DNA of 64,000 nucleotides, from assembly GCA_049322915.1 (NCBI GenBank), contig JBMOPW010000028.1, positions 2,965 to 66,964 of the forward strand. Reading direction: 5' to 3'. The notes beneath the pieces are model-generated. The model worked only from the letters and a program-made list of their open reading frames with translations, was not told the DNA's origin and searched no databases. Position 1 is the stretch's first letter, and each line of letters opens with the position of its first letter. Below, in pieces: positions 4,897-64,000 of the stretch. Position numbers and translations under genes: made by a program. Source of the stretch: Candidatus Zhuqueibacterota bacterium. Lineage in GTDB: Bacteria > Zhuqueibacterota > Zhuqueibacteria > Thermofontimicrobiales > Thermofontimicrobiaceae.

Positions 4897-5289
4897 ATGA
4901 AACGTCTTTTGGTTGTGGAGGACGATCCAAATACGCTGGCAGGAATGGTCACCCTGCTGCGGGATGAGGGGTATCAGGTTCACGGCGTGATCAATGGTAG
5001 TGCTGCGCTGGATGCCATTGCAAATCACCATATCGATATAGTGCTCTGCGATTTTGATCTCCCGGATATCAATGGCTTGAACGTGAGCATTCTGGCGAAA
5101 AGACTTCAGCCGAACGCCCACTTTTTTATGATCACGGCTTACTACGACGACCTGCTGCTAGACGCTGCCGAGAAATGCGGAGTGAAAAAGGTATTCTGCA
5201 AACCGGTGGCGATTCATGACATGCTGGAATCATTGAATAATTCGACGAAACGCCGGGTTGTGAAAAATGCTGTGTCATGTTTTAGCTGA
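4897..5289 (+). CDS. Stand-alone CheY-like receiver domain protein
   Basis: Begins 'MKRLLVVEDDPNTL' and carries 'IVLCDFDLPDINGL'; there is no output domain. An RBS 'agaggaa' sits upstream of the ATG at 4897, which lies inside track ORF 4831..5289. Confidence 0.75.
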   Translation: MKRLLVVEDDPNTLAGMVTLLRDEGYQVHGVINGSAALDAIANHHIDIVLCDFDLPDINGLNVSILAKRLQPNAHFFMITAYYDDLLLDAAEKCGVKKVFCKPVAIHDMLESLNNSTKRRVVKNAVSCFS

Positions 5290-5519
5290 AATGAATTGTG
5301 CGCCTTTTAGTATTTGATAAATGTTTTTCTGACTTTGTCGGTCAGAAAATTTTATAACTTTTGTTGCAACAGGGTCGGCCAGCGCGGGCAATGGCCCCAT
5401 GGTTCGTGATGAATATCCCGAACGATTGGTTTAAGAATCTGTGGCGATCAGTACCATCCGCGTCATCTGTGTTCTATGTCTTTTTTGATTATGGCTTGCT
5501 CAAGGTTAGGGGAAACGAA

Positions 5520-5780
5520 ATGATTCGGATTTTGGTGGTTGAAGATGATACCAATACCCTCACCAGACTCATTCATCATTTGCAGAAAGGGGGGTATCTG
5601 GTCCGCGGGGTTATGAATGGCAATCAGGCGCTGGAGACGCTCGAGAATGAACCAGCCGATATTGTGCTGTGCGATTACAGCGTGCCGGAAATCAACTGCA
5701 CGAAGATATGCCTGCAATTGAAACGGCTGCAGCCGGACGATGTGTTATTGTGGCTTCGCACCTTTAAGCTGCAAAATTAA
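5520..5780 (+). CDS. Truncated CheY-like receiver paralogue of 86 aa; possibly a decaying duplicate
   Basis: 'MIRILVVEDDTNTL...IVLCDYSVPEIN...LKRLQPDD' parallels the gene at 4897..5289 residue for residue. It stops after the equivalent of beta4, so the conserved Thr/Lys region is missing. An RBS 'AGGGGA' precedes the ATG at 5520. Confidence 0.45.
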   Translation: MIRILVVEDDTNTLTRLIHHLQKGGYLVRGVMNGNQALETLENEPADIVLCDYSVPEINCTKICLQLKRLQPDDVLLWLRTFKLQN

Positions 5781-5847
5781 ATTTGACCCAATGACACTTC
5801 AAATAGGATGATTTCATTCGTTGTTTCCAAAACTGCAAGAGCACGAC

Positions 5848-5897
5848 GGGCACAAATGCTCCTTCCTCCTGAACAAGAGCATTTGTGCCTTTTTATT
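5848..5897 (+). terminator. Rho-independent terminator
   Basis: A perfect 13-bp stem 'gggcacaaatgctc ... gagcatttgtgcc' with an AT-rich 'tttttatt' tail lies downstream of the receiver genes. Confidence 0.7.
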
Positions 5898-6038
5898 CTG
5901 ACTCAAAGAAATGAGTCATTCCCCAGGTAGACAGCATGAGGAACGAAGATAATTTACGCGAGCCCTTTTTGCCTGAGTCGAATGGACTGCGTCCGAAGGC
6001 GTGCACTCCGGCAATCTAAAATCGTATGGAGGTACCCA

Positions 6039-7073
6039 TTGAATTGGATTCGAACGTCACCGAAGCTCTTTCTCTATCTTGCAATTTTTTTGATCATTGC
6101 ATGCAAAGACGAATCCATTGTTCCGCAGCAGACGACAAAACCGGAACAGATCCAGGCCACGCTGGAAAGTCTGGAACTATTGGACGACTATCCTCTTTAT
6201 ACCATGCAATATCACGGCGATTATGGCTTTGATGACTATTTGCGGACCGGTGTGTTGAATGCGCCTCCGGGGAAAACAGCGCATCGCCAATCTGCCTCGC
6301 CGAGTCCCCGGTTTGCCTGCACCTGTTTTGCAGCGATGGGGGCCAGCCAGTCCATGGTGTTCAGCCGCAATTTCGATTTCTTCCATCGACCGACGCTCAT
6401 GCTGTTCACGGACCCGCCGAACGGCTGCGCTTCGGTGTCGATGGTGGACATGTATTACCTCGGCTATGACGGATCCCGGTCGCTGGAGACACTGGACGAC
6501 CGCGAAATTCTACTGCAAGCGCCCTATTTGCCCTTCGATGGCATGAACGAGTATGGCGTGACGATTGGGATGATGGCTGTCCCAAATGCTGAACCGCCCT
6601 TTGATCCGAATAAGGTGACGATTTATGAACTGGCGCTCATCCGGCTTGTTTTGGACTATGCCACGACAACGGAGGACGCCATCAGGCTCATTGGCAAATA
6701 CAACCTCGCCGTGGGCAGCATCCCGGTGCATTTCCTCATTGCCGACCCCTCCGGCCATTCGGCGGTGATTGAATTTGTCAATGGAAAAATGCACGTCCTC
6801 CCCAACACCGAGTTGTGGCAGGTAGCGACGAACTTCATCATCTACGGTTCCAATGCGCCGGAGCAAACATCTTGCTGGCGATACGATGCGGCTTACAGTG
6901 ATTTAAAAAAAGCGACTGGCAAGAAAACGCGCGACAGCGCCATGGTGCTTCTCCAGAGGGTCGCCCAGGAATCGACCATGTGGTCCATTGTCTTTGATAT
7001 GTCGAATGTAAAAGTACAGGTGACGGTGGGACAAAACTTCAGTCAGGTCTACAGCTTCGACGTGACGCCCTGA
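6039..7073 (+). CDS. Lipoprotein, Ntn-hydrolase superfamily (C45 acyl-CoA:6-APA acyltransferase-like or choloylglycine-hydrolase-like)
   Basis: Proposed TTG start at 6039 with a GGAGG 7 nt upstream; the track ORF begins at 5982. The lipobox is 'LAIFLIIAC'. The internal 'RFACTCFAAMG' places a Cys at a typical Ntn autoprocessing site, and the product is about 345 aa. Confidence 0.5.
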   Translation: MNWIRTSPKLFLYLAIFLIIACKDESIVPQQTTKPEQIQATLESLELLDDYPLYTMQYHGDYGFDDYLRTGVLNAPPGKTAHRQSASPSPRFACTCFAAMGASQSMVFSRNFDFFHRPTLMLFTDPPNGCASVSMVDMYYLGYDGSRSLETLDDREILLQAPYLPFDGMNEYGVTIGMMAVPNAEPPFDPNKVTIYELALIRLVLDYATTTEDAIRLIGKYNLAVGSIPVHFLIADPSGHSAVIEFVNGKMHVLPNTELWQVATNFIIYGSNAPEQTSCWRYDAAYSDLKKATGKKTRDSAMVLLQRVAQESTMWSIVFDMSNVKVQVTVGQNFSQVYSFDVTP

Positions 7074-7163
7074 AGCTGCGACACTCATGGGGGCAATTCA
7101 GCCTCGGGCTAACGACACTCGTGATTAACCCGTGAAAAAAAATCTGCTAAAGAGGGGAGGCAT

Positions 7164-7889
7164 TCAACCCAATCGTTCCTTCAGTTTTGCAACATAACGC
7201 CGGCTCAACACGACCGGCTTTTCGATATGCTTCAAATAAACGCGGAACGAATAATTGAACCACTCCTCCAGCCGGTCGATGAAATCCATGTTGATGATGG
7301 TCGATCGGTGAATCCTGATGAAATGGCTCTCCGGCAGGCGCTGTTCCCATTCCCGCATGGACTTGTGGGCCAATCCGCGAATGCCTTCGCTGGAGATGAT
7401 TTCGGAGTAATCGCCGGCAGCGGTAATGCACATGATGGTGTTTATCCTCAAAAACTTCATGCGATTGTCGATCATCAGAAACAGGCGGTCCTCGTGGGTG
7501 AGCGGGCGCAGTTCTGAAGGCTCGCTTTTCTGTCCCTGCTCCAGCCGCTCGATGCTCAGCCTCAATCGCTCGGGACTGACTGGCTTGAGCAAATAATCGA
7601 GCGCGTTGATTTCAAAAGCGCGAATGGCATATTCATCAAACGCGGTGATGAAAATGACATTCACGTCGCTGTCGATTTTGTTCAGCAAATCGAAACCGGA
7701 TTCGCCCGGCATTTGAATATCCAGAAAGATGACGTCCGGATTCAACCGCTGCACAGCTTCCAGGGCAGATGGGACATCCTCGGCCTCGCCAGCTACATGG
7801 ATGTTCGCAAATTCAGAAAGCATCGAACGAATATCTTTTCGCGCCAACCGTTCATCGTCCACGATCAGGGCGCTGAATTGCTTATTCAT
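7164..7889 (-). CDS. LytTR-family response regulator (receiver plus LytTR DNA-binding domain)
   Basis: 'LIVDDERLARKDI' and 'FLDIQMPGESGFDLL' mark the receiver. The C-terminal LytTR region reads 'FLRINTIMCITAAGDYSEIISSEG...FIRIHRSTIINMDFI'. Confidence 0.85.
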   Translation of the reverse strand: MNKQFSALIVDDERLARKDIRSMLSEFANIHVAGEAEDVPSALEAVQRLNPDVIFLDIQMPGESGFDLLNKIDSDVNVIFITAFDEYAIRAFEINALDYLLKPVSPERLRLSIERLEQGQKSEPSELRPLTHEDRLFLMIDNRMKFLRINTIMCITAAGDYSEIISSEGIRGLAHKSMREWEQRLPESHFIRIHRSTIINMDFIDRLEEWFNYSFRVYLKHIEKPVVLSRRYVAKLKERLG

Positions 7890-8164
7890 TTTGTTAATCC
7901 TGTCTTTGAGAATTAGTAGTTACTCTGGAATATTTTCGAAATAAAGCTCAGTCACGGAGTGCACGAAAATGCGAAGACAGACAAAAGAAAAAACGAAACG
8001 GATCGCGCCGGAGTTTTCTTCGGAATGGAAATTGAATTCGGACTTTTGTCTGAACCATGATTGTCCCTGATGATGAATATCTTGAAAGATATTGGCCCGG
8101 CATAAATAGGCCGGACAATCCTGAGTTAATTCTTCTCCCTGTAGCCTTCGAGCCCTCTGTGATT

Positions 8165-9238
8165 TTATAAGGAGTTATTCTCGATTTCCAGGGCGACGCA
8201 AACGACACCATCGTTTTCAGTAATGGTCATTGCATGGTGTTCCGGGAATGCATTTTCCAATCGCTGGCGGATGTTATTCAAGCCGATGCCAGTGCTGATG
8301 GTGTTCAGATGTTGAGACGGCTCAATCCATTTTCCAGTGTTACACACTCTAATTTTCAATCGCGATCCATCCACAACCGTCGCGTGGATTTGTATTTTCA
8401 ACGGCATGGGACTTGTCTGCATACCGTATTTGATAGCGTTTTCAATGAGCGGGTGAATGAGAAAACTGAGCACCGGGTAATCTTCAGCCAGTGGATCGAT
8501 CTCAAACTCCACGATGAGCTTGTCCTCGTACCGAATTTTCTCGATGGCGAAATAGTGGCGAATGGCTTCAATTTCATTATTGAGCGGCACGTCCTTGAAA
8601 TTTTTGCTGGTGAGCGAATAGCGCAGGAATTCCGATAACTCGGTGATCATTCTTTTGGCGCTTTTCTGATCCTCATCCACCAGCGCGCGAATGCTGTTCA
8701 ATGAATTGAATAAAAAATGGGGATTCAACTGATAACGCAGCATTTGCAACTGCGCGCTTTGCGCCAGGGCATTTGCCTGTTCAGTCCGCTCCTTTTGCAC
8801 CATCCACTCCTGCCATAGTTTTATGCTGAAATACAGGGCGCTCCAGAGCAGGCAGACAAACAGATGAGACCAGATGCTGCTGATATAATATCTGACAGTG
8901 AGACGGTTCATCAGGTATTCGGCGCCATGCAGGGGAATACTGCAGAAAATATCGGTCCAGAGCCACAGATTGGATGCGATGAGCGAAGCGACGATGACCA
9001 CGCCGGAGAGCGAAAGAATGGAACGGGCAGAATAGTTAATTTTTTTGTAAACCAGGCGCAACAGGTAGGTGATGACAAAACCGATGGTATCTGTGATGAA
9101 AAGTCCAGCCATCACTTTGGAATTGTTCAATCGGTCGGAATAAAAAATGAAAATGTAGGCCAGGAAAAGCGTGGTCCAGCCGGAAATGTGCAGCGCCCAG
9201 AATAGCCGGTTGCTTATTTTTGCCTTCACATATTTCAT
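8165..9238 (-). CDS. LytS/YehU-type sensor histidine kinase with a multi-TM sensor, the His_kinase domain (PF06580) and HATPase_c
   Basis: Four or five N-terminal TM helices are followed by 'LNPHFLFNSLNSIRALV' and an ATPase domain. Start chosen at the internal ATG 9238 (RBS GAGGGA); the track ORF extends to 9319. It lies upstream of the LytTR regulator on the same strand. Confidence 0.8.
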   Translation of the reverse strand: MKYVKAKISNRLFWALHISGWTTLFLAYIFIFYSDRLNNSKVMAGLFITDTIGFVITYLLRLVYKKINYSARSILSLSGVVIVASLIASNLWLWTDIFCSIPLHGAEYLMNRLTVRYYISSIWSHLFVCLLWSALYFSIKLWQEWMVQKERTEQANALAQSAQLQMLRYQLNPHFLFNSLNSIRALVDEDQKSAKRMITELSEFLRYSLTSKNFKDVPLNNEIEAIRHYFAIEKIRYEDKLIVEFEIDPLAEDYPVLSFLIHPLIENAIKYGMQTSPMPLKIQIHATVVDGSRLKIRVCNTGKWIEPSQHLNTISTGIGLNNIRQRLENAFPEHHAMTITENDGVVCVALEIENNSL

Positions 9239-9550
9239 TGCATCCCTCGCGTCGCCCATGAGTCTGTCAGAGAAAAAAAGCCGTGTCACAAAGGTACTGT
9301 TTTCAGCCCAGATTTCCAAAGAAAAAATTGAATTTCGCGCTCACAACGTAATAAATTTTTTCCTGTTGTGAAAGATGAATTAGCCGTGCGGTCGCTGGAG
9401 GCGCTGAGTGGTTGCTCCGAAAAAAAATGCCACTGATCGAACGATACGACCTTTTATCGATTAGGAATTTCTTTTGAGAAAATGAAGTGTTAGGTTGATT
9501 CAGTCAAATGACTTTTCCCGATAAATTGATCTTAACAAAAGGATGATGCC

Positions 9551-12500
9551 ATGAAAAAAATGATCTCTTTTATTCTGATGATGCTCCTGGTCCTCTTTTT
9601 TATGAGTGACAGGAAAACGAGAGTGGAGAAAAGGACATGGGATTCGCCGAAAATGCTGGCAGGCGTTCAGTTGCCCTTCATCGAAAATGTGGGACAGACA
9701 GCCGGGCATGTCCGTTTTTATTCGCAGATAGGCGACGGCCTGGTTTGCCTGGACAGGGCCGGTCGCATCGCATATTCATTCATCAATCATGCCGGAGAGG
9801 GAAATCGGCTCTGTTTCGAAGAACAATTCCTCGGCGGCCGGATCGCCTCTCTCAGCGGGATGGAAAAGACCGACGCCCATGTCAGCCATTTCATCGGAAG
9901 CGATCGCCGCCGCTGGCGCACGCAGATCCCGACCTATCGCAGCGTGACACTGGGGCAGGTCTACGATGGTATTTTCATCAACCTGAAAAGCCACGCCAAT
10001 AACGTGGAGAAGCTATGCATTGTCCAACCCGGGGCAGAGCCGGAGACGATTCGAATTCAAATCAATGGCTGCGCCTCGCTGCAGATCAATGACGCAAAAG
10101 AATTAGTCGTCGAGACGCCTCAGGGGCGAATCGCGTTCACTGCGCCGGTGGCGTATCAGGAAATTGGCGGAGAACGGACTCGTGTCGAGGTCGCCTATGA
10201 ATTGGCTGACGGATCCAGCCAGTCAAATGTCTACGGTTTTTCAGTCGGCGACTATGACCGGAGTCGAACGCTTGTCATTGACCCATTAATTGCCGCCACG
10301 TTTCTGGGCGGTGGAAAAACTGAAGGCATGAATTACACCAATACGCAAGTCGTAGCCGCCGGGGATGGTGACGTCTATGTTGCCGGCTGCACCCAGTCCC
10401 CTGATTTTCCAGCGTTGGCGGATTCGTATCAGAACTCGCTTCGCGCCGGCTCCGACGGTTTCGTCGCGAGATTCAATCGTGCGCTCACTGAATTGAAGCA
10501 AGTGACATTCTTCGGCGGCGATGCACTCGATGAAATTTCCAGCATGCGGCTGGCCGGGGATGGCTCCCTTTACGTGGCGGGAAATACAGAATCCACTGAC
10601 CTGCCTACTACCGAGAGCGCCTATCAGCGAGTTTACAAAGGAGGGGAGTTCAATTACTACGGCAGCGGTGACGCATTCATCGCCCGATTCGACAGCAATC
10701 TTCAGACGCTGCTTGCGTCAACGTACATCGGCGGCAGCAAAGCAGAATACTGCGCCTCTCTGGCGCTGGACAAGGCCGGCCACGTGTTCATCTCCGGCGC
10801 CACAACATCGAATGACTTTCCATTCACTGCCAGTGCTTTTCAGAAAACGCACAAGGTCGGCGGCCAACTGGGAGAGGATGTGTATGTGTCCAAACTCAGC
10901 GGGGATCTGACGCAACTGCTGGCGTCCTCGTACATCGGGGGCAGCGGTGACGATTTGGCTGAGGAATTGGCCGTGATGCCCTCTGGTTCTGTGGTTCTGG
11001 TCGGGTGGGTCACATCGGCAGATTATCCCACAACTGCGAATGGGTACGACCGTTCGTTCGGCGCCGGCGGGTACGACGCATTTGTCACCAAAATCGACAA
11101 TGATCTCGGCTCGCTTCTGTCCTCCACCTATCTGGGCGGCAGCAACTGGGATTTCGGCTATGCATTGACCCTGGATAGCGCGTGCAATGTGTACGTGACC
11201 GGGCATACGGCGTCGACCAATTTTCCAACCAGCGCGAGCGCGTTTGACCTGACCTATAGCGGCAGCGGCGGCCAGAATATCGGCGATGATCTCTTCATTT
11301 CCAAATTTGATAGCTCGCTGAGCGCATTGTCAGCATCGACGTACCTGGGCGGCGAAGCCTGGGAAATCGGCTATTGCCTGATGACCGATGCGCAGGGCGC
11401 GGTGTACGTTGCCGGAACAACCAGTTCAGCGGAATTTCCGACTGTCGCCCATGCCTACGATTCGACCTACAACGGTGGGACGAAATATACCGGCGATGCG
11501 TTCATCTCCCGACTGGATGGAAATCTCTCGTCGCTTGTTGCCTCCACCTATCTGGGCGGCAGCGAATCCGAGGGCGTTGGCGGCATGTGTCTCGGTGGGG
11601 ACGGTTCCGTTTGGCTCGCCGGCAGCACCACCTCCGGGGATTTCCCTGCCTCGTATTCAGCTTATGATAAAAGCTACAATGACGGCGCCGGAGACGCCTT
11701 CCTCGCCCGACTGGATGCCAATCTCTCCAGGGATCTGGTGACGTCAGGATTTTATATGACGCCGCAGACCGGGCACATGCCGCTGACAGTGCAATTCACG
11801 GACGCATCGACATCGGTCGCGCCGATCACTTCCTGGCTGTGGGACTTCGATCATGATGGCGTCGTTGATTCCGATGAGAAAAATCCAACCTGGACGTATC
11901 AGGAAGCCGGCCAATTCATCGTGACCTTGCTGGTCTCCGACGGCGTCAATTCGGACATCGTTGAAATGGAGAGCGCCATTCACGTGTTCGATGGAGAAAG
12001 CGCGCTCTGGTTCGACGGTCTCAATAGCAAAGGGGCCTGCGCTGCAACCGCCAGCTTGAATTTGATGGACGCGCTGACGATTGAGGCGAAAATTAGTCCG
12101 TCTGGCTGGGGCGAAACCGCCGGGCTGGGACTCGGCCGTATTATCGATAAAAAAAATATCCAGCTTTACGTTGTTGGCGAACATCCCAGTTTTAGCGATC
12201 ATTCGCTGGCGTTGCAATTGACACACGCCGACGGCACAACGAGCATGTCAATCACAGAGGCCAATTCAATTTCGCTGGATACCTGGCAGCACATCGCTGT
12301 GTCGTATGACGCCAATTCCAACCAAGTGAGGATGTACATCAATGGGGTGGAGCAGTCGCTTTTTCAAACCCGAACGCCATCCGGCAGCATCAAGGACAAT
12401 AGCGCGGATGTTTTGTACATTGGTAACAATGCCACCACCACAAACACGTTCCATGGCGCCATTGATGACGTGCGGCTGTGGAATGTCGTGCGCAGCAAAG

Positions 12501-28262: not shown

Positions 28263-28676
28263 TCATCCACCAAGCAAGTATTTCCACAAAGGAATGCCTG
28301 GTCCAGTAGGCTCTGTCTTCTGCAAAACTTCCATCTGGAGGAGCCACGCTGAGGTACAGGCAATTACAATATAAGAGTAAGATGATACATAAAATACTGA
28401 TTTTCGAATTTTCATGTTTGCTTCTGTTTTAAATTTTGGTTCAAGCATGGCCGAAAGTGTATATTTGTTGAGCATTAACCAAATGAAGAATAACAAATAT
28501 GGCACGTATCTTATCCAAGCCATAAAAATACCTGCGAGTATGCCAAGTATAAACATGATGGGAAACTTGATCCACCTATTCCTTGTGAATGCATTTACAA
28601 TCGGCGGAATTGCGAAATGAAATATCCCGAGTATCAAAATGCTTTTTAATAACCAATAGAATAGAGCAAGAATCAT
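28263..28676 (-). CDS. Small polytopic membrane protein (three or four TM helices), hypothetical; last gene of the AT-rich island
   Basis: The protein is hydrophobic throughout ('ILILGIFHFAIPPIV', 'FPIMFILGILAGIFMAW', 'VPYLLFFIWLML') and its composition is AT-rich. Confidence 0.5.
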   Translation of the reverse strand: MILALFYWLLKSILILGIFHFAIPPIVNAFTRNRWIKFPIMFILGILAGIFMAWIRYVPYLLFFIWLMLNKYTLSAMLEPKFKTEANMKIRKSVFYVSSYSYIVIACTSAWLLQMEVLQKTEPTGPGIPLWKYLLGG

Positions 28677-28836
28677 GTCTTCATCCTTTTATTTACCACA
28701 TAATCGCGGCGCTGACCCGCGAGCACGCTGGCTGGGAGTCCCGCTTGTGGGACGGACAGACAGCGCGCGCAGTCGCGCGGAACGAGCGACGATTTTAGCT
28801 ATCACCTGGAGCTATTTGTTAGGTGATTTTCTGTGC

Positions 28837-29373
28837 TCAGGTTTTTTCTTTTAGTACTTTAGTCAATTGACCTAATGACATAGTTCCATTCACGAGATTA
28901 TTACGAATTGGTCTAAAAGCATCTAACATTCGACGGTGCGTCTCTATTGAAGGGCAATGTGAATTAAAGCTACGACCTTTGAATTCTTGAAACCGATCTA
29001 ACTCGTTTACGAGAAACATCGCAGTGCCCATGTATTCAGCTTCATTATTACCATCGAATCCATTAAACTTTGGATCTTTTCTAAAAGGCTCTGCATCAAC
29101 TTCTAGCTTAGCCTTTTGTTCATCGTTTAATTTACTATATGCATGCTCAATGAAGCTCCACATATCCAAAATGTCAACCACTTCTTTAACAATCGATGGA
29201 TCTTCAGTTTGTTCAAATGGAATTCCACTATATTTCCACTTTATCCCCCAAAGTTGATCATTAAAAATTGCTGATTTTATAAAATCAGGATCAATTTCAC
29301 CTTCAACGCCAAGATTCTCGTATAACTCGCTTAGCATTAGAATTATAAGTTTTTCGCCATCTGATAGTTTCAT
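28837..29373 (-). CDS. YfbU-family (UPF0304) protein
   Basis: It aligns along its length with E. coli YfbU, for example 'MKLSDGEKLIILMLSELY' and 'FNGFDGNNEAEYMGTAMFLVNELDRFQEF' against the '[29 protein letters not shown]'-type core. Its ATG overlaps the stop of the upstream gene by 4 nt. Confidence 0.7.
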   Translation of the reverse strand: MKLSDGEKLIILMLSELYENLGVEGEIDPDFIKSAIFNDQLWGIKWKYSGIPFEQTEDPSIVKEVVDILDMWSFIEHAYSKLNDEQKAKLEVDAEPFRKDPKFNGFDGNNEAEYMGTAMFLVNELDRFQEFKGRSFNSHCPSIETHRRMLDAFRPIRNNLVNGTMSLGQLTKVLKEKT

Positions 29374-29885
29374 TTTTTAATCCCTTTCTTTTGTAGTAGG
29401 ACGCGCTCGCGCTTTTCATCTGACAGTTCTTTTACAGCAGGCATGAAGTTTTGAATTTTATAATAGATACTTTTCCCATAATTTTTTTTATCTTCGAAAG
29501 TTATCGCCTCTGACAATCTTTCGATATCAGCTTTCAAGTCTTCACAGAGTTCTTTTGCTTTGTTTTCAAAAAAATCATTGAAATGGCCGCTTTGCTCTAG
29601 GATGAAACTTGTATAAGTCTCAACTTCTTTTGCGATATTAGAGCAGTCAACACCCCTTAAGAGTTTAGCGTTACAGGATGGGCCAACTGTCGAAATGACC
29701 GATAAAACTCTTTTGGTTTCAGAGTGAACTACAGAAACCTCTACCATTTTTCTGCGATGAACGAGCTCATCATGGAGTATTTCAGCCTTTGTTGCTGAAG
29801 TAGATGCCTTTCTGGCTTCCACGAACGACCATATCGCTCCTGCTATCGAAGCCAACGAGCCAATTATTGATATCAAACTTTCCAT
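29370..29885 (-). CDS. Single-pass membrane protein (N-terminal TM helix plus a charged cytoplasmic domain of about 140 aa), hypothetical
   Basis: 'MESLISIIGSLASIAGAIWSFV' is followed by a Lys/Glu-rich domain. It is translationally coupled to the YfbU-like gene. Confidence 0.5.
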   Translation of the reverse strand: MESLISIIGSLASIAGAIWSFVEARKASTSATKAEILHDELVHRRKMVEVSVVHSETKRVLSVISTVGPSCNAKLLRGVDCSNIAKEVETYTSFILEQSGHFNDFFENKAKELCEDLKADIERLSEAITFEDKKNYGKSIYYKIQNFMPAVKELSDEKRERVLLQKKGIKK

Positions 29886-29966
29886 GATTGATTTTTATGC
29901 CTTATATTTAGATAGCCTAACGTTTGAATTCACCAGCTGCCGTAGGCAGTCCGGTGGAATGAATGG

Positions 29967-30761
29967 TTAGACGACATTTTTCGTTAACCACTCGGCCCCT
30001 GCGATCAATTCTTCCACTTGCTCCTTAGTAGGGTCAGCATCTTTTTTATGCGAGCAAAGATTACGAAGATCAGCTAGAAAACTTATTTTTCGCCAACTCG
30101 CTATATCGGTCACAGATGCAGCTTTCAGTGGATCATTGAGGTCCGCAATCGTAGGGTTCTTCTTGGCAATTTTTATGCCGTGCGAGTCTGCTACTTTCTG
30201 AAGGTGGCCTTCGATGAGAACACCAACAAGTGCACCCGCAGCTCTCGGACTGACTTTCAATAGCTGCCTAGCAACAATAACTTCGTTGTCTTGAATCTCT
30301 GCGTATAGCTCACCCTCAATATTGGCCAAAACTGAATCAATCCGCTCCTTGATTGCATTCAGGATCGCCAATTGGTTCAGGAAGCATTGCAGTACCTGCT
30401 TGCGCGTGTCGAAGCCTTCATATTGATAAGCGCCTGGAGCAACGCCCTTGAGGTAGTCTTGAATGACGTACGTTCCATAACCGAGCGACTTTCTCTTTGG
30501 ATCTACCTCGTAGTAGCTACGAAATTCAGAATGTCGGTCTGAGGCCAAGGAGGCGACGGCCTTAACTGCCTTTGTGTACCAGCTTTGGTAGTCGTAGTGG
30601 AATTGCTTTTCTTCCTTCTTCTGGAAAGATACGGCCAGTTCAGCACCTTCCTTGTAGAGGGCAGCTAGTTCTTTGTGGATTGCTTCGCGCTTCGTCATCT
30701 TGTCTTCCAACAAGTAATTATTCAGTTTCTGCATAACATCCTGAACAGGTAAAGACTGCAT
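29967..30761 (-). CDS. Hypothetical protein with a C-terminal HEPN-type Rx4H motif; putative RNase or abortive-infection-like effector
   Basis: The C-terminus 'ISFLADLRNLCSHKKDADPTKEQVEELIAGAEWL' contains R-N-x3-H followed by a helix, as in HEPN and Abi nucleases. The gene is AT-rich and is the first gene of the island operon. Confidence 0.45.
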   Translation of the reverse strand: MQSLPVQDVMQKLNNYLLEDKMTKREAIHKELAALYKEGAELAVSFQKKEEKQFHYDYQSWYTKAVKAVASLASDRHSEFRSYYEVDPKRKSLGYGTYVIQDYLKGVAPGAYQYEGFDTRKQVLQCFLNQLAILNAIKERIDSVLANIEGELYAEIQDNEVIVARQLLKVSPRAAGALVGVLIEGHLQKVADSHGIKIAKKNPTIADLNDPLKAASVTDIASWRKISFLADLRNLCSHKKDADPTKEQVEELIAGAEWLTKNVV

Positions 30762-31184
30762 CGCGAAACAACAATAGAAACAGTGCCTTTTGTGAAATGA
30801 TTTTCTATGTCTCAGGAAATCAGACTGACCGCATAACGCCCAAAAAAGAATGTTATACAGAAAGATGGTTTCGTGAGCAGAGCAGCGAATTTCCTGCCGG
30901 GATGTATGAGGATAAATTTAATAAGATAACGCAGAAAGTCAAGCTAATTTTTCTGAAATCGCAAAAGAATTCCCTGATAAAAAAATGGGCAACCGCTGAA
31001 ATCTTGAGGAAGAGATTTTTATAATTCCAGTGGCCACTTTTTCTCCTCTGTTGTCCTTGTTATGTTTTACGACCTGACAATTGCATAAATTTACCATTCA
31101 CCAAAAATCCTCTTGCTTTTTTGAAAAAAAATCTTAAACTATCTGTAACATAAATGTCATATTCATCATTTAGAGGTCTGGTAA

Positions 31185-60879: not shown

Positions 60880-61535
60880 AATGTCAGACTCCGTCAGGAG
60901 TCAAATCTTTGTTGTAATTCGTGGTAACAATTTACAAAACTCCGTAGGAGTGGAAGAGAATAGATGGAGGGCAAACGCGATGCCGAATACCTTCACACAG
61001 ATTTATATCCAGGTTGTCTTTGCAGTTAAGAATCGGCAGGCGCTAATCCACAATGATTATGAGGATGAATTATTCAAATATATCGCCGGAATAATCCGGA
61101 ATGGAAACCAGAAACTTTTTGCCATCAATGGTATTCCAGATCATATCCATATTTTCATAGGTATTCATCCGAATATCGCTCTATCGGATTTGGTGCGCGA
61201 TGTGAAAAATAGTTCATCAAAATTTTTGAATTCACATAGACTGGTTTCCGGAAATTTCAACTGGCAGGAGGGATTTGGAGCTTTTTCTTACAGTCATTCA
61301 CAGATCGATGCAGTAGTAAAATATATTCAGAGGCAAAAGCTTCACCATACAAAGCAGCCATTCAGGGAAGAATATCTCGACATGCTGAAAAAGTTACATA
61401 TCAATTATGATGAAAAATATCTGTTTGAATGGATTGATCAGGGAGCGCAATAATACTGTGTCACCCCTAAAGGGGTTTCAATTTTGACGGTTATGAATTG
61501 GCTACGAATAGGATACCCCTGACGGGGTAGAGGCG
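60880..61535 (+). mobile_element. IS200/IS605-family minimal element (tnpA only) with subterminal hairpins
   Basis: The left end has hairpins 'gactccGTCAggagtc' (60887-60902) and 'actccGTAggagt' (60939-60951) with a 'TTAC' just upstream. The right end has hairpins 'ccccTAAAgggg' (61464-61475, followed by 'TCAA') and 'accccTGACggggt' (61514-61527). Confidence 0.6.
60980..61453 (+). CDS. tnpA: IS200-like Y1 (HuH) transposase TnpA or a REP-associated tyrosine transposase
   Basis: The N-terminal beta-strand is 'QIYIQVVFAVKNRQ', the HuH motif is 'PDHIHIFIG', and a C-terminal helix carries Tyr ('GAFSYS...VKYIQRQ'). The product is about 157 aa. RBS GGAGGG; the track ORF begins at 60869. Confidence 0.75.
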   Translation: MPNTFTQIYIQVVFAVKNRQALIHNDYEDELFKYIAGIIRNGNQKLFAINGIPDHIHIFIGIHPNIALSDLVRDVKNSSSKFLNSHRLVSGNFNWQEGFGAFSYSHSQIDAVVKYIQRQKLHHTKQPFREEYLDMLKKLHINYDEKYLFEWIDQGAQ

Positions 61536-61747
61536 AAGCTGGCTATCTCAAATAGTCGGGAATACCCCGATGCCAAAATTTGAATTCGAATTTGAAGTGG
61601 CATTGAATGGTTCTCTTTAACATTGTCCGGGGAAAAACACTCTGGCAGTCGACATGGAGTATGAGAAATCCATATGCTCTTTGCATTTCGATATCATGTT
61701 GTCACAGTGAAAATAAATAATACCAAACAATAAGGGAGAGTATAAAT

Positions 61748-62365
61748 ATGATTAATTATTTATTTGATACACTTGAAGATTGGAGACATCTGCCAAACTA
61801 CCAACTCGAACGACGAGCCGATATTTTTTTTGCAATCCATTTAAAAACAATCTTAAAGCACACACACAATATAGATGTCAAGGCGATTATTCCAGAATTT
61901 CCAATACGTATTGGCAGTATTTATCCTGACAAACACAACAATAAGTCTTATAAAGTTGACTATGCTGTTTTCGATTCGAGTAAATGTTATCTGATCGAAT
62001 TAAAAACAGATGATGGTTCTGCAAAAGAAAGTCAATTTATAAATTATTTCGAAGCTATTGAAATCGGCTTTGAGTCGATAGTGAAGGGAATACTCGATAT
62101 TGTCGAAGCAACGGAAGATAAATATAAAAGCAAATATTTATATCTTATTGAGAAGCTTACAAATATTAACGCTATTAATAATGGCCGTGTTTCGAGTATA
62201 TACTCCTTTCATGAAAAGCCAATTTGTATAAAACCAACTGGTGAGGACGTTGATAAAATAATTGTAATAAATTTTATGAGGATTAGTCGCATTCTCAATC
62301 AGGAAAATGATGGATTGACTATTGCATTCAGAAATGCATTAGATAAATGGGTTAAGCCTGCTTAA
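61748..62365 (+). CDS. AT-rich hypothetical protein with a PD-(D/E)xK-like nuclease motif
   Basis: 'ERRADIFFAIH...VDYAVFDSSKCYLIELKTDDG' gives the E...D...ExK pattern. The composition is distinctly AT-rich relative to the flanks, and the RBS is 'AAGGGAGAG'. Confidence 0.5.
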   Translation: MINYLFDTLEDWRHLPNYQLERRADIFFAIHLKTILKHTHNIDVKAIIPEFPIRIGSIYPDKHNNKSYKVDYAVFDSSKCYLIELKTDDGSAKESQFINYFEAIEIGFESIVKGILDIVEATEDKYKSKYLYLIEKLTNINAINNGRVSSIYSFHEKPICIKPTGEDVDKIIVINFMRISRILNQENDGLTIAFRNALDKWVKPA

Positions 62366-62544
62366 TAAATGCGGGTGTAAATTGAATTCAAGTATATTTT
62401 TTTTAAAAATAATCGGCCGCGCCTGTCATTCGCACGCTGACGCATGGCGTTAATCTTTTCCCGGTATTCTAAAAATTGTCTTTTCACAAAAGCCAGTCAC
62501 TGAAAAAAAATAGAAAAATCACTCGATCCTACCCTGGAGGGACC

Positions 62545-64000
62545 ATGATATTGAAAAAAAATGGGATATTGAGGGACATTGCCTGTGGACTGATTTTGGT
62601 GCTATTCCAAATCGTCCCGGCCCGGGCGGAAATTACCCCGCCGGAAAAATATCTGGGCTTTGCGCCCGGCGCGGATTTCTATTTGATGACGTACGAGCAG
62701 GCCATCGGCTATTTCGAATTGTTGGCCGGGCAGACCGATAGAATGATTGTGCTGGATATGGGGGCCACCTCCGAGGGCCGGCGCATGAAATACGGTGTGA
62801 TCTCTTCGGCTGAAAACCTGGCCCGTCTGGACTATTTTAAAGATTTGAATAAAAAGCTGACATTGGCGCAGGGCGCGTCTGAAGCCGATGCGAAAAAATT
62901 GGCCGATGAGGGAAAGGCCATTGTCTGGATCGATGGCGGGCTTCACGGCACCGAAGTCGCGCCGGCGCAACTGCTGCCCCAATTGGCATACGATCTGGTC
63001 ACGATGGAGGACGCACGCACAAAATCCATTCGCGAGAATGTCATTGCGCTCATTGTGTTCGCCAACCCGGATGGCATGACCATTGTCTCCGACTGGTACA
63101 TGCCCAACGTGGGCACGCCGTACGAGGTGAGCCCGATTCCCTGGCTCTATCACAAATACGCCGGGCACGATAACAACCGCGATTCCTTTGTGTCCAACCT
63201 GATCGAAACGAAGAACATGAACATCGCCACTTCGCTGGAGTGGTTCCCGCATATTTTGTACAATCAGCACCAGACAGCGCCATTCCCGGCGCGCATCTGG
63301 ATACCGCCGGATGCCGAGCCCACAAATCCCAATATTCATCCCATCATCATTCGCTGGAAAAATCTGTTTGGCGCGGCCATGGGCAAAGCCTTCGAAGAGG
63401 CCGGTCAGCCGGGGGCTATTTCCCGCGTTCTGTTCGATACGTGGTATCCCGGCTATGCCACGCAGGTGGTGGATGGCCACAACACCATCTCCATCCTCAC
63501 GGAGACGCAGCTTTATCGCTATGCCACGCCCCAGTTCTATCACCTGCAGGACTTCCCCCGCGAGCACCAGGATTTGACCAAAGGCGTGTTCTATCCCAGT
63601 CCCTGGACAGGCGGCTGGTGGCGCATCGGCGACGCTGTGAAGTACAACTGGACCGCGTGCATGGCAGTGCTGGAAACAGCGGTCAAGTTCCGTTACGACC
63701 TGCTGTTCGACAAATGGCGCATCGGCAGGGATGTCATCGACCAGTTTTCAAGCGAGCCGCCCTACGGCTGGATTGTTCCGGCGGAGCAGCGCGATCCCTT
63801 TTCATCGGCCAATCTCATCGACAAGTTGCTCATTACCGGCATCGATGTTTTTCAGGCGGAGACCGGTTTCGAGCATAACGGGATTCAGTATGCCAAAGGT
63901 TCGTACATCGTCCCCACCAGTCAGGCGTTCGGACTGTTTGTGAAGAATTTATTCGAGAAGCAGGATTATCCTGATCTTCGAAAATACAAGCACCTGTGGC
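62545..64000 (+). CDS. M14-family zinc carboxypeptidase, 3'-truncated by the window edge
   Basis: The frame is open from the ATG at 62545 (RBS GGAGGG) to the window end, so it is absent from the ORF track. The signal peptide is 'ILRDIACGLILVLFQIVPARA'. 'IDGGLHGTEVAP' is the HxxE zinc ligand region, and 'HKYAGHDNNRD' and 'ETQLYRY' are also present. Confidence 0.75.
   Translation, partial: MILKKNGILRDIACGLILVLFQIVPARAEITPPEKYLGFAPGADFYLMTYEQAIGYFELLAGQTDRMIVLDMGATSEGRRMKYGVISSAENLARLDYFKDLNKKLTLAQGASEADAKKLADEGKAIVWIDGGLHGTEVAPAQLLPQLAYDLVTMEDARTKSIRENVIALIVFANPDGMTIVSDWYMPNVGTPYEVSPIPWLYHKYAGHDNNRDSFVSNLIETKNMNIATSLEWFPHILYNQHQTAPFPARIWIPPDAEPTNPNIHPIIIRWKNLFGAAMGKAFEEAGQPGAISRVLFDTWYPGYATQVVDGHNTISILTETQLYRYATPQFYHLQDFPREHQDLTKGVFYPSPWTGGWWRIGDAVKYNWTACMAVLETAVKFRYDLLFDKWRIGRDVIDQFSSEPPYGWIVPAEQRDPFSSANLIDKLLITGIDVFQAETGFEHNGIQYAKGSYIVPTSQAFGLFVKNLFEKQDYPDLRKYKHLW

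Follow-up and report, generated by a model that had tools for sequence, protein, structure and literature searches.

A promoterless single-gene integron cassette in a Candidatus Zhuqueibacterota genome encodes a divergent DUF4145-type HEPN protein

The first gene of a low-GC island within the 64-kb stretch of DNA analysed here (hereafter "the window") is a promoterless, single-gene integron cassette, and the C-terminal half of the 243-residue protein that it encodes consists of a HEPN domain of divergent DUF4145 type in which the R-N-x3-H motif is intact. The protein is a new, uncharacterised member of the DUF4145/HEPN proteins. By analogy with characterised relatives, its function is most likely that of a stand-alone, self-regulated, growth-arresting RNase, and such an RNase would probably serve in defence against phages or plasmids. 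What is listed in the metagenome-assembled genome (MAG) as a "hypothetical protein" can thus be replaced by a concrete prediction, namely a stand-alone HEPN RNase on an integron cassette.

Gene boundaries and true start

The preliminary description of this DNA had taken the gene to be an open reading frame (ORF) of 264 aa. This ORF exists, but its length was overstated, as its first 21 codons are not conserved and nearly all homologues are 243 aa long (Table 1). Of the 120 best-matching database proteins, which were 75–93% identical to the query, almost all had this length. In the 20 genome loci that we compared, DNA similarity to the window extends from position 30711, 13 nt upstream of the ATG (30698), to 29915–29917, and upstream of 30711 the window has no similarity to any of the 20 homologous loci. 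Given the length of the homologues and the point at which DNA similarity starts, we place the true start at M22 of the 264-aa ORF. The NCBI annotation uses a third start, giving a 255-aa "hypothetical protein" (MFZ5517976.1), and exact-sequence look-ups with both the 264-aa and the 243-aa forms found no record. Contigs reached through neighbouring genes came from this same organism and gave no further context. Below, residues are numbered by the 243-aa protein, and adding 21 converts these numbers to the numbering of the 264-aa ORF.

Table 1. Positions in the window of the cassette, its gene and the regions of the encoded protein
Feature	Position	Strand	Remarks
ORF of the preliminary description	29967..30761	minus	264 aa; C-terminal end ...ISFLADLRNLCSHKKDADPTKEQVEELIAGAEWLTKNVV
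CDS of the 243-aa protein, including stop codon	29967..30698	minus	start at M22 of the 264-aa ORF
Spurious 21-codon 5' extension of the ORF	30699..30761	minus	mostly outside the cassette; not in the conserved gene
N-terminal helical region, residues 1–97	30408..30698	minus	conserved Y37, W40, Y41, R55, F59, Y63, D81
Long helix or helices, residues 98–147	30258..30407	minus	helices 98–118 and 120–147 in the full model; one 50-residue helix in the domain model
DUF4145-type HEPN core, residues 143–232	30003..30272	minus	Pfam match region; R152, G155, G159, E163, H165 conserved
Catalytic-type motif R212-N-L-C-S-H217 (Rx4H)	30048..30065	minus	R, N and H conserved; canonical HEPN position
Whole integron-type gene cassette, ~790 bp	29921..30710	minus	starts with the TT of G|TTGGAA (5'), ends with the G of the GTTAGGC core (3')
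5' recombination junction GTTGGAA, R'-type core	30705..30711	minus	GTTAGAA at other loci
attC, 58 nt	29915..29972	minus	R'' GTCTAAC overlapping the stop codon; R' GTTAGGC

The C-terminal half is a DUF4145-type HEPN domain

A HMMER search against 1.84 billion representatives recovered a family of at least 1127 clusters at 50% identity (1127 at E ≤ 1e-3, 278 at E ≤ 1e-30). The query itself matched the Pfam profile DUF4145 at residues 164–253 of the 264-aa form with 15.2 bits (E 0.022), which is below the cut-off of 23.1. Two homologues, P0128 and P0218, reached 31.2 bits (above the gathering threshold of 23.1) and 23.1 bits (at the threshold), respectively, each over profile positions 2–85 of 88, and the query matched both of them over their full length (E 6.5e-67 and 2.2e-39). 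DUF4145 (PF13643), which Pfam places in clan CL0291, is well established as a family of HEPN domains (PMC3710099), and transitive sequence homology assigns the protein to this branch of the HEPN superfamily. Across the family, DUF4145 was matched by 44 of 142 members at E < 0.01, and HEPN (PF05168) and HEPN_RiboL-PSP were matched by 16 and 12 of the 142, respectively. The Pfam matches within the family were all of HEPN type (DUF4145, HEPN, RiboL-PSP, and Swt1), with no other family recurring.

The R-N-x3-H motif that had been noticed beforehand in the C-terminal region of the ORF is present there (encoded at 30065..30048). By itself, the motif is weak evidence, because an Rx4-6H pattern arose in 53% of shuffles of the protein (RNxxxH in 0.7%), and its significance comes instead from conservation among distant homologues. 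In an alignment of 141 representatives that were 35–63% identical to the query, R212 was kept in 94%, N213 in 92%, and H217 in 92%, with R or H missing in about 6–8% of the sequences; conservation of these two residues had been set beforehand as a test of the HEPN reading. In the same alignment, R152 was invariant (100%), E163 was conserved at 96% and H165 at 93%, all three lying in the predicted helix 151–172, and G155, G159, E163, and H165 were each conserved in at least 93%. Column entropy was lowest at residues 151–160 and around the R-N-x3-H motif. The HEPN core was the most constrained part of the protein among diverse representatives, with a mean identity of 48% vs 34% for the N-terminal region.

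An AlphaFold2 model built from the family alignment was all-alpha (pLDDT 96.7, pTM 0.84), with helices at residues 3–26, 33–51, 53–61, 79–84, 98–118, 120–147, 151–172, 184–193, 199–216, and 225–241, and a separate model of residues 95–243 reached a pLDDT of 97.0. In the former, R212 stands at the end of helix 199–216, H217 is the first residue of the following loop, and the short helix 184–193 forms an insert that separates the two preceding core helices (i.e., helices 2 and 3). [quoted passage not shown] Residues 98–147 pack on the HEPN core in the models and are probably HEPN helix 1. The predicted domain spans roughly residues 120–243, or 98–243 with the long helix counted.

Foldseek searches of the domain model against the PDB returned HEPN structures as all of the top nine matches, the best being 2hsb (probability 1.00, TM 0.60/0.69, rmsd 3.0 Å), and the compact matches of the full-length model were likewise HEPN proteins (Csm6, 1o3u, 2hsb, HEPN-MNT toxins, YutE, and AbiV). 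The Foldseek E-values were weak (0.06 or higher), though the lists were HEPN-specific. Structure prediction followed by structure search had been proposed at the outset as a test of the fold, and it gave an all-alpha, HEPN-type bundle. One could still read the motif as a coincidence within an unrelated helical protein, given its frequency in shuffles and Foldseek E-values above 0.01, but this explanation is effectively refuted by the conservation of the motif, its position in the fold, the HEPN-only top structural matches, and the homologues above the DUF4145 threshold. The same lines of evidence support the HEPN reading that the preliminary description had proposed.

The N-terminal module

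The N-terminal ~100–120 aa had no match in Pfam, NCBIfam, PADLOC, the PDB, or BFVD (viral folds), and the region is found in nearly all aligned full-length representatives. The earlier view of an N-terminal region that could not be placed therefore holds in that it matches nothing known. Its size does not, since the HEPN domain begins at about residues 98–120 and the region comprises about 100–120 aa rather than 180.

Comparison with known HEPN systems

Like other DUF4145 (PF13643) proteins, the query has a domain of ~88 residues (at residues 143–232) with an RNxxxH-type motif at the end of helix 3, joined to a variable partner domain. It is unlike them in its N-terminal partner, which is not among the REase, helicase, Zn ribbon, TM, TIR, AbiJ-NTD1, and DpnII-NTD domains. 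One characterised relative of this kind is RAZR (PD-T7-4), a zinc-finger and DUF4145 RNase required for phage defence, in which R and H are essential (R146A/H154A mutants lose defence) and which acts by abortive infection (PMC13017515). RAZR resembles the query as a small single-gene protein with an N-terminal accessory domain and a C-terminal DUF4145 HEPN domain, and differs from it by the zinc finger and the R146...H154 spacing, whereas the N-terminus of the query is helical and without cysteine clusters. BxaP and Ishtar1 are also DUF4145 defence proteins.

Single-gene HEPN defences have been reported on integron cassettes, including Esos and Taranis (10.1101/2024.07.02.601686), BrcN/AbiV (10.1101/2024.07.02.601719), and an AbiU2-HEPN protein of V. 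mimicus (10.64898/2026.03.17.712381). Like the query, these consist of a compact single ORF with an attC, encode a HEPN effector, and are spread by integrons, but they belong to other HEPN subfamilies (Abi_C, AbiV, and AbiU2). An "integron cassette HEPN" family represented by PDB entry 3jrt (PMC3710099) is similar in that its HEPN domain is borne on integron cassettes; it is gammaproteobacterial, in contrast to the cross-phylum spread of the query family. Our family profile did not match 3jrt in the PDB at E up to 10, this structure was absent from the top 50 Foldseek matches, and sequence and profile searches against the PDB gave coiled-coil noise only.

The best structural matches to the C-terminal domain were MNT-associated HEPN toxins (HepT/MntA; 7ae9, 5yep, and 6m6w) and AF_0298 (2hsb), with TM scores of 0.45–0.69, and these carry an Rx4H motif at the same position. 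Unlike the HEPN-MNT toxins, the query has no MNT or antitoxin gene adjoining it in 20 loci and possesses an extra N-terminal module of ~100–120 residues. Among the PADLOC models (including PD-T7-4/RAZR, AbiJ, AbiV, and AbiU), the query had no matches at E up to 1 and family members had weak, scattered matches only, and NCBIfam gave no meaningful match for the query. On the PADLOC, PDB profile, Foldseek, and neighbour evidence, we rejected RAZR, AbiJ, AbiV, AbiU, HEPN-MNT toxins, and the 3jrt family as the identity of this protein.

The gene is a promoterless integron cassette

The cassette consists of a 12-nt leader, the 243-codon ORF, and a 58-nt attC that overlaps the stop codon, and it has room for one ORF only. 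Most loci share the 5' boundary G|TTAGAAGACAxxATG (in the window, G|TTGGAAGACAAGATG), with the sequence before the G unrelated between loci, and the flanks beyond the two cassette boundaries are likewise unrelated. In two loci (L001 and L011), the 5' junction of the gene coincides exactly with the end of a neighbouring attC. The R'' and R' cores of the cassette's own attC fit the pattern RYYYAAC...GTTRRRY of an imperfect R''-L''...L'-R' hairpin, and as single-stranded DNA this attC folds into the bulged hairpin typical of such sites (z-score -3.6). Its stem is 89.5% paired over eight loci with four compensatory pairs, compared with at most 52% for slid partners, the structure having been derived from the copy in the window. 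With a covariance model built from the attC of this same cassette, the copy in the window scored 84 bits (E 1e-18), and in a strict pattern-plus-fold scan of the 64 kb it was the sole passing site (29972..29915).

Neither the strict scan nor the covariance model, which is biased to its own attC subtype and may miss degenerate sites, revealed another attC in the window, and there was no integrase among the ten large ORFs of the window that were scanned against Pfam. Upstream of the cassette, we found no promoter above chance using a sigma-70 consensus, which may not apply to an FCB-group host. The cassette in the window is solitary; it lies in a chromosomal island of the MAG, which belongs to Candidatus Zhuqueibacterota (FCB group), and its expression there is uncertain. 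Excision and integration by IntI would make it mobile.

Relatives in arrays, hosts, and selection

Same-strand attC arrays flank the gene in four loci (L001, L002, L006, and L011) according to the covariance model and a cruder scan. The L001 locus, from Xanthomonas hortorum, contains at least ten attC sites, and the nearest upstream one stops 6 nt short of the ATG. This array (5153..10549, at least ten same-strand attC) adjoins secD, its ORFs are mostly without a Pfam match apart from one that is a Rce1-like CAAX protease, and no IntI lies within the 12.7 kb fetched. Even in distant relatives, an attC-like site occurs just past the stop codon (L017, a cyanobacterium, 59%; L013, Caulobacteraceae, 62%).

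The gene evidently also travels outside integrons, as suggested by a Terriglobia chromosome (L018, 1637..7822) in which an 81%-identical homologue lacks an attC. That homologue is preceded by a 1431-aa ATPase and repeat protein and directly followed by a truncated and an intact serine-recombinase ORF.

Members of the same 90%-identity cluster come from Comamonas, Acidovorax, Paracidovorax, and Xanthomonas, and further relatives were found in Pseudomonadota, Acidobacteriota, Chloroflexota, Nitrospirota, Bacillota, Methylomirabilota, Bacteroidota, and Cyanobacteriota, with MAG binning errors possible for some of these assignments. The cassette gene is present nearly unchanged in about nine phyla. 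An all-against-all comparison of 20 loci revealed no recurrent neighbouring ORF, save for genes common to two Xanthomonas genomes, and we rejected toxin-antitoxin pair and operon models as no partner gene was found in these 20 loci. The dN/dS ratio was 0.03–0.04 against the four closest DNA relatives (L001, L002, L003, and L016), and purifying selection is very strong; against the remaining DNA relatives, synonymous sites were saturated and the proteins were 72–86% identical.

Possible functions

We consider it somewhat more probable than not that this integron cassette encodes a two-part protein, in which an N-terminal module is joined to a HEPN RNase that causes growth arrest and, through it, immunity of the abortive-infection type. 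As in other HEPN proteins, the HEPN domain would dimerise, and the two copies would together make up a composite RNase site that needs no metal. Normally, the enzyme would be inactive or weakly active, held in check by the N-terminal module and/or by low, position-dependent expression in the cassette array, until a trigger (e.g., a phage or plasmid component) led it to cleave cellular RNA (tRNA, rRNA, or mRNA). This cleavage would stop translation and growth, and so provide abortive-infection-type immunity. The attC would let integron integrases carry the gene between arrays and hosts, and such movement would explain its presence in about nine phyla. Two observations count against a defence role, namely the lack of a PADLOC match for the query and the unusually high conservation: an identity of 80–93% across phyla with a dN/dS of 0.03 is atypical of fast-evolving defence genes and may indicate a role other than defence. 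A bolder version, which we hold only tentatively, is that of a widespread single-protein cassette module for immunity or toxicity in which a new N-terminal helical sensor controls the DUF4145 HEPN RNase, and in which the constraint comes from a universally conserved target of the cell or of mobile elements. Recognition or cleavage of such a universally conserved component would account for the near-housekeeping constraint (dN/dS ~0.03).

The high conservation also bears on readings without an immune function. An unlikely one is that of a toxin for dormancy under stress or for cassette maintenance, whose RNase would slow translation under stress or penalise loss or rearrangement of the array. 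This was proposed in 2013 for integron-borne HEPN domains (PMC3710099), the HEPN and cassette evidence fits it equally well, and high conservation would suit a conserved cellular RNA target; yet there is no antitoxin, classical addiction is hard to picture for a one-ORF cassette with no conserved neighbour in 20 loci, and the integron HEPN cassettes tested so far (Esos, Taranis, BrcN/AbiV, and AbiU2-HEPN) have all turned out to be phage defences. We give the same low likelihood to a non-toxic accessory factor for RNA processing or RNA binding, catalytically active but specific and of a housekeeping-like benefit. Both the dN/dS of ~0.03 and the identity of 80–93% across phyla resemble core-type constraint, and neither matches to defence models (PADLOC) nor conserved defence genes nearby (20 loci) were seen, but a patchy, cassette-borne, and horizontally spread gene is typical of accessory conflict genes, and the nearest DUF4145 proteins of characterised function are without exception defence effectors. 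Less probable again is a non-catalytic HEPN domain that binds a ligand or RNA or acts as a scaffold, as happens in some HEPN families. Inactive HEPN families are numerous (PMC3710099) and a minority of the representatives here lack R or H, whereas the retention of R, N, and H at 92–94%, together with E163 and R152, is the pattern expected of an active site.

Recent work has established integron cassettes as reservoirs of compact genes for phage defence. The family described here is large and unusually conserved and extends over many phyla. If active, the protein would extend the defence repertoire of integrons by a portable RNase effector encoded by a single gene and would represent a clear case of cassette transfer among Proteobacteria, Acidobacteriota, Chloroflexota, Nitrospirota, Cyanobacteriota, and FCB-group bacteria. 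If the bolder version given above held, the cassette would be a broadly portable module for defence or growth control with a new trigger mechanism.

Surroundings of the cassette in the window

The cassette gene heads a low-GC patch (0.38–0.45 vs ~0.52 in the flanks) with four minus-strand ORFs. Directly past the attC lies a two-gene unit (29885..28837, minus strand) whose ORFs overlap by 4 nt. The first encodes 171 aa (150 aa in the NCBI annotation) with an N-terminal hydrophobic helix and weak, sub-threshold matches to the SLATT_1 and Saf_2TM effector domains (E ~0.08–0.1), and the second encodes a 178-aa YfbU-family protein (PF03887, E 1e-19). Possibly, this unit is an unrelated, second cargo module; neither the strict scan nor the covariance model found a canonical attC after it. 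An AT-rich spacer separates the YfbU gene from the next ORF and contains a GC-rich, strongly structured element of ~90 nt (28700..28790; DNA fold z-scores of -3.2 on one strand and -3.8 on the other), which was not recognised as an attC by either of these methods. The last ORF of the island (28676..28263, minus strand) encodes a 137-aa hydrophobic, probably multi-pass membrane protein that has no family match and forms a singleton cluster in a collection of 15 billion proteins. On the other side, a 470-bp AT-rich spacer (30712..31184) separates the 5' junction of the cassette from a divergent xylulokinase gene, and neither a fold resembling attC or attI (z +1.0) nor a promoter signal beyond chance was seen in it. 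A second low-GC patch (61000..63600; 0.37–0.43), which carries a 321-aa minus-strand ORF (62602..63567) without a Pfam match, may be another acquired island.
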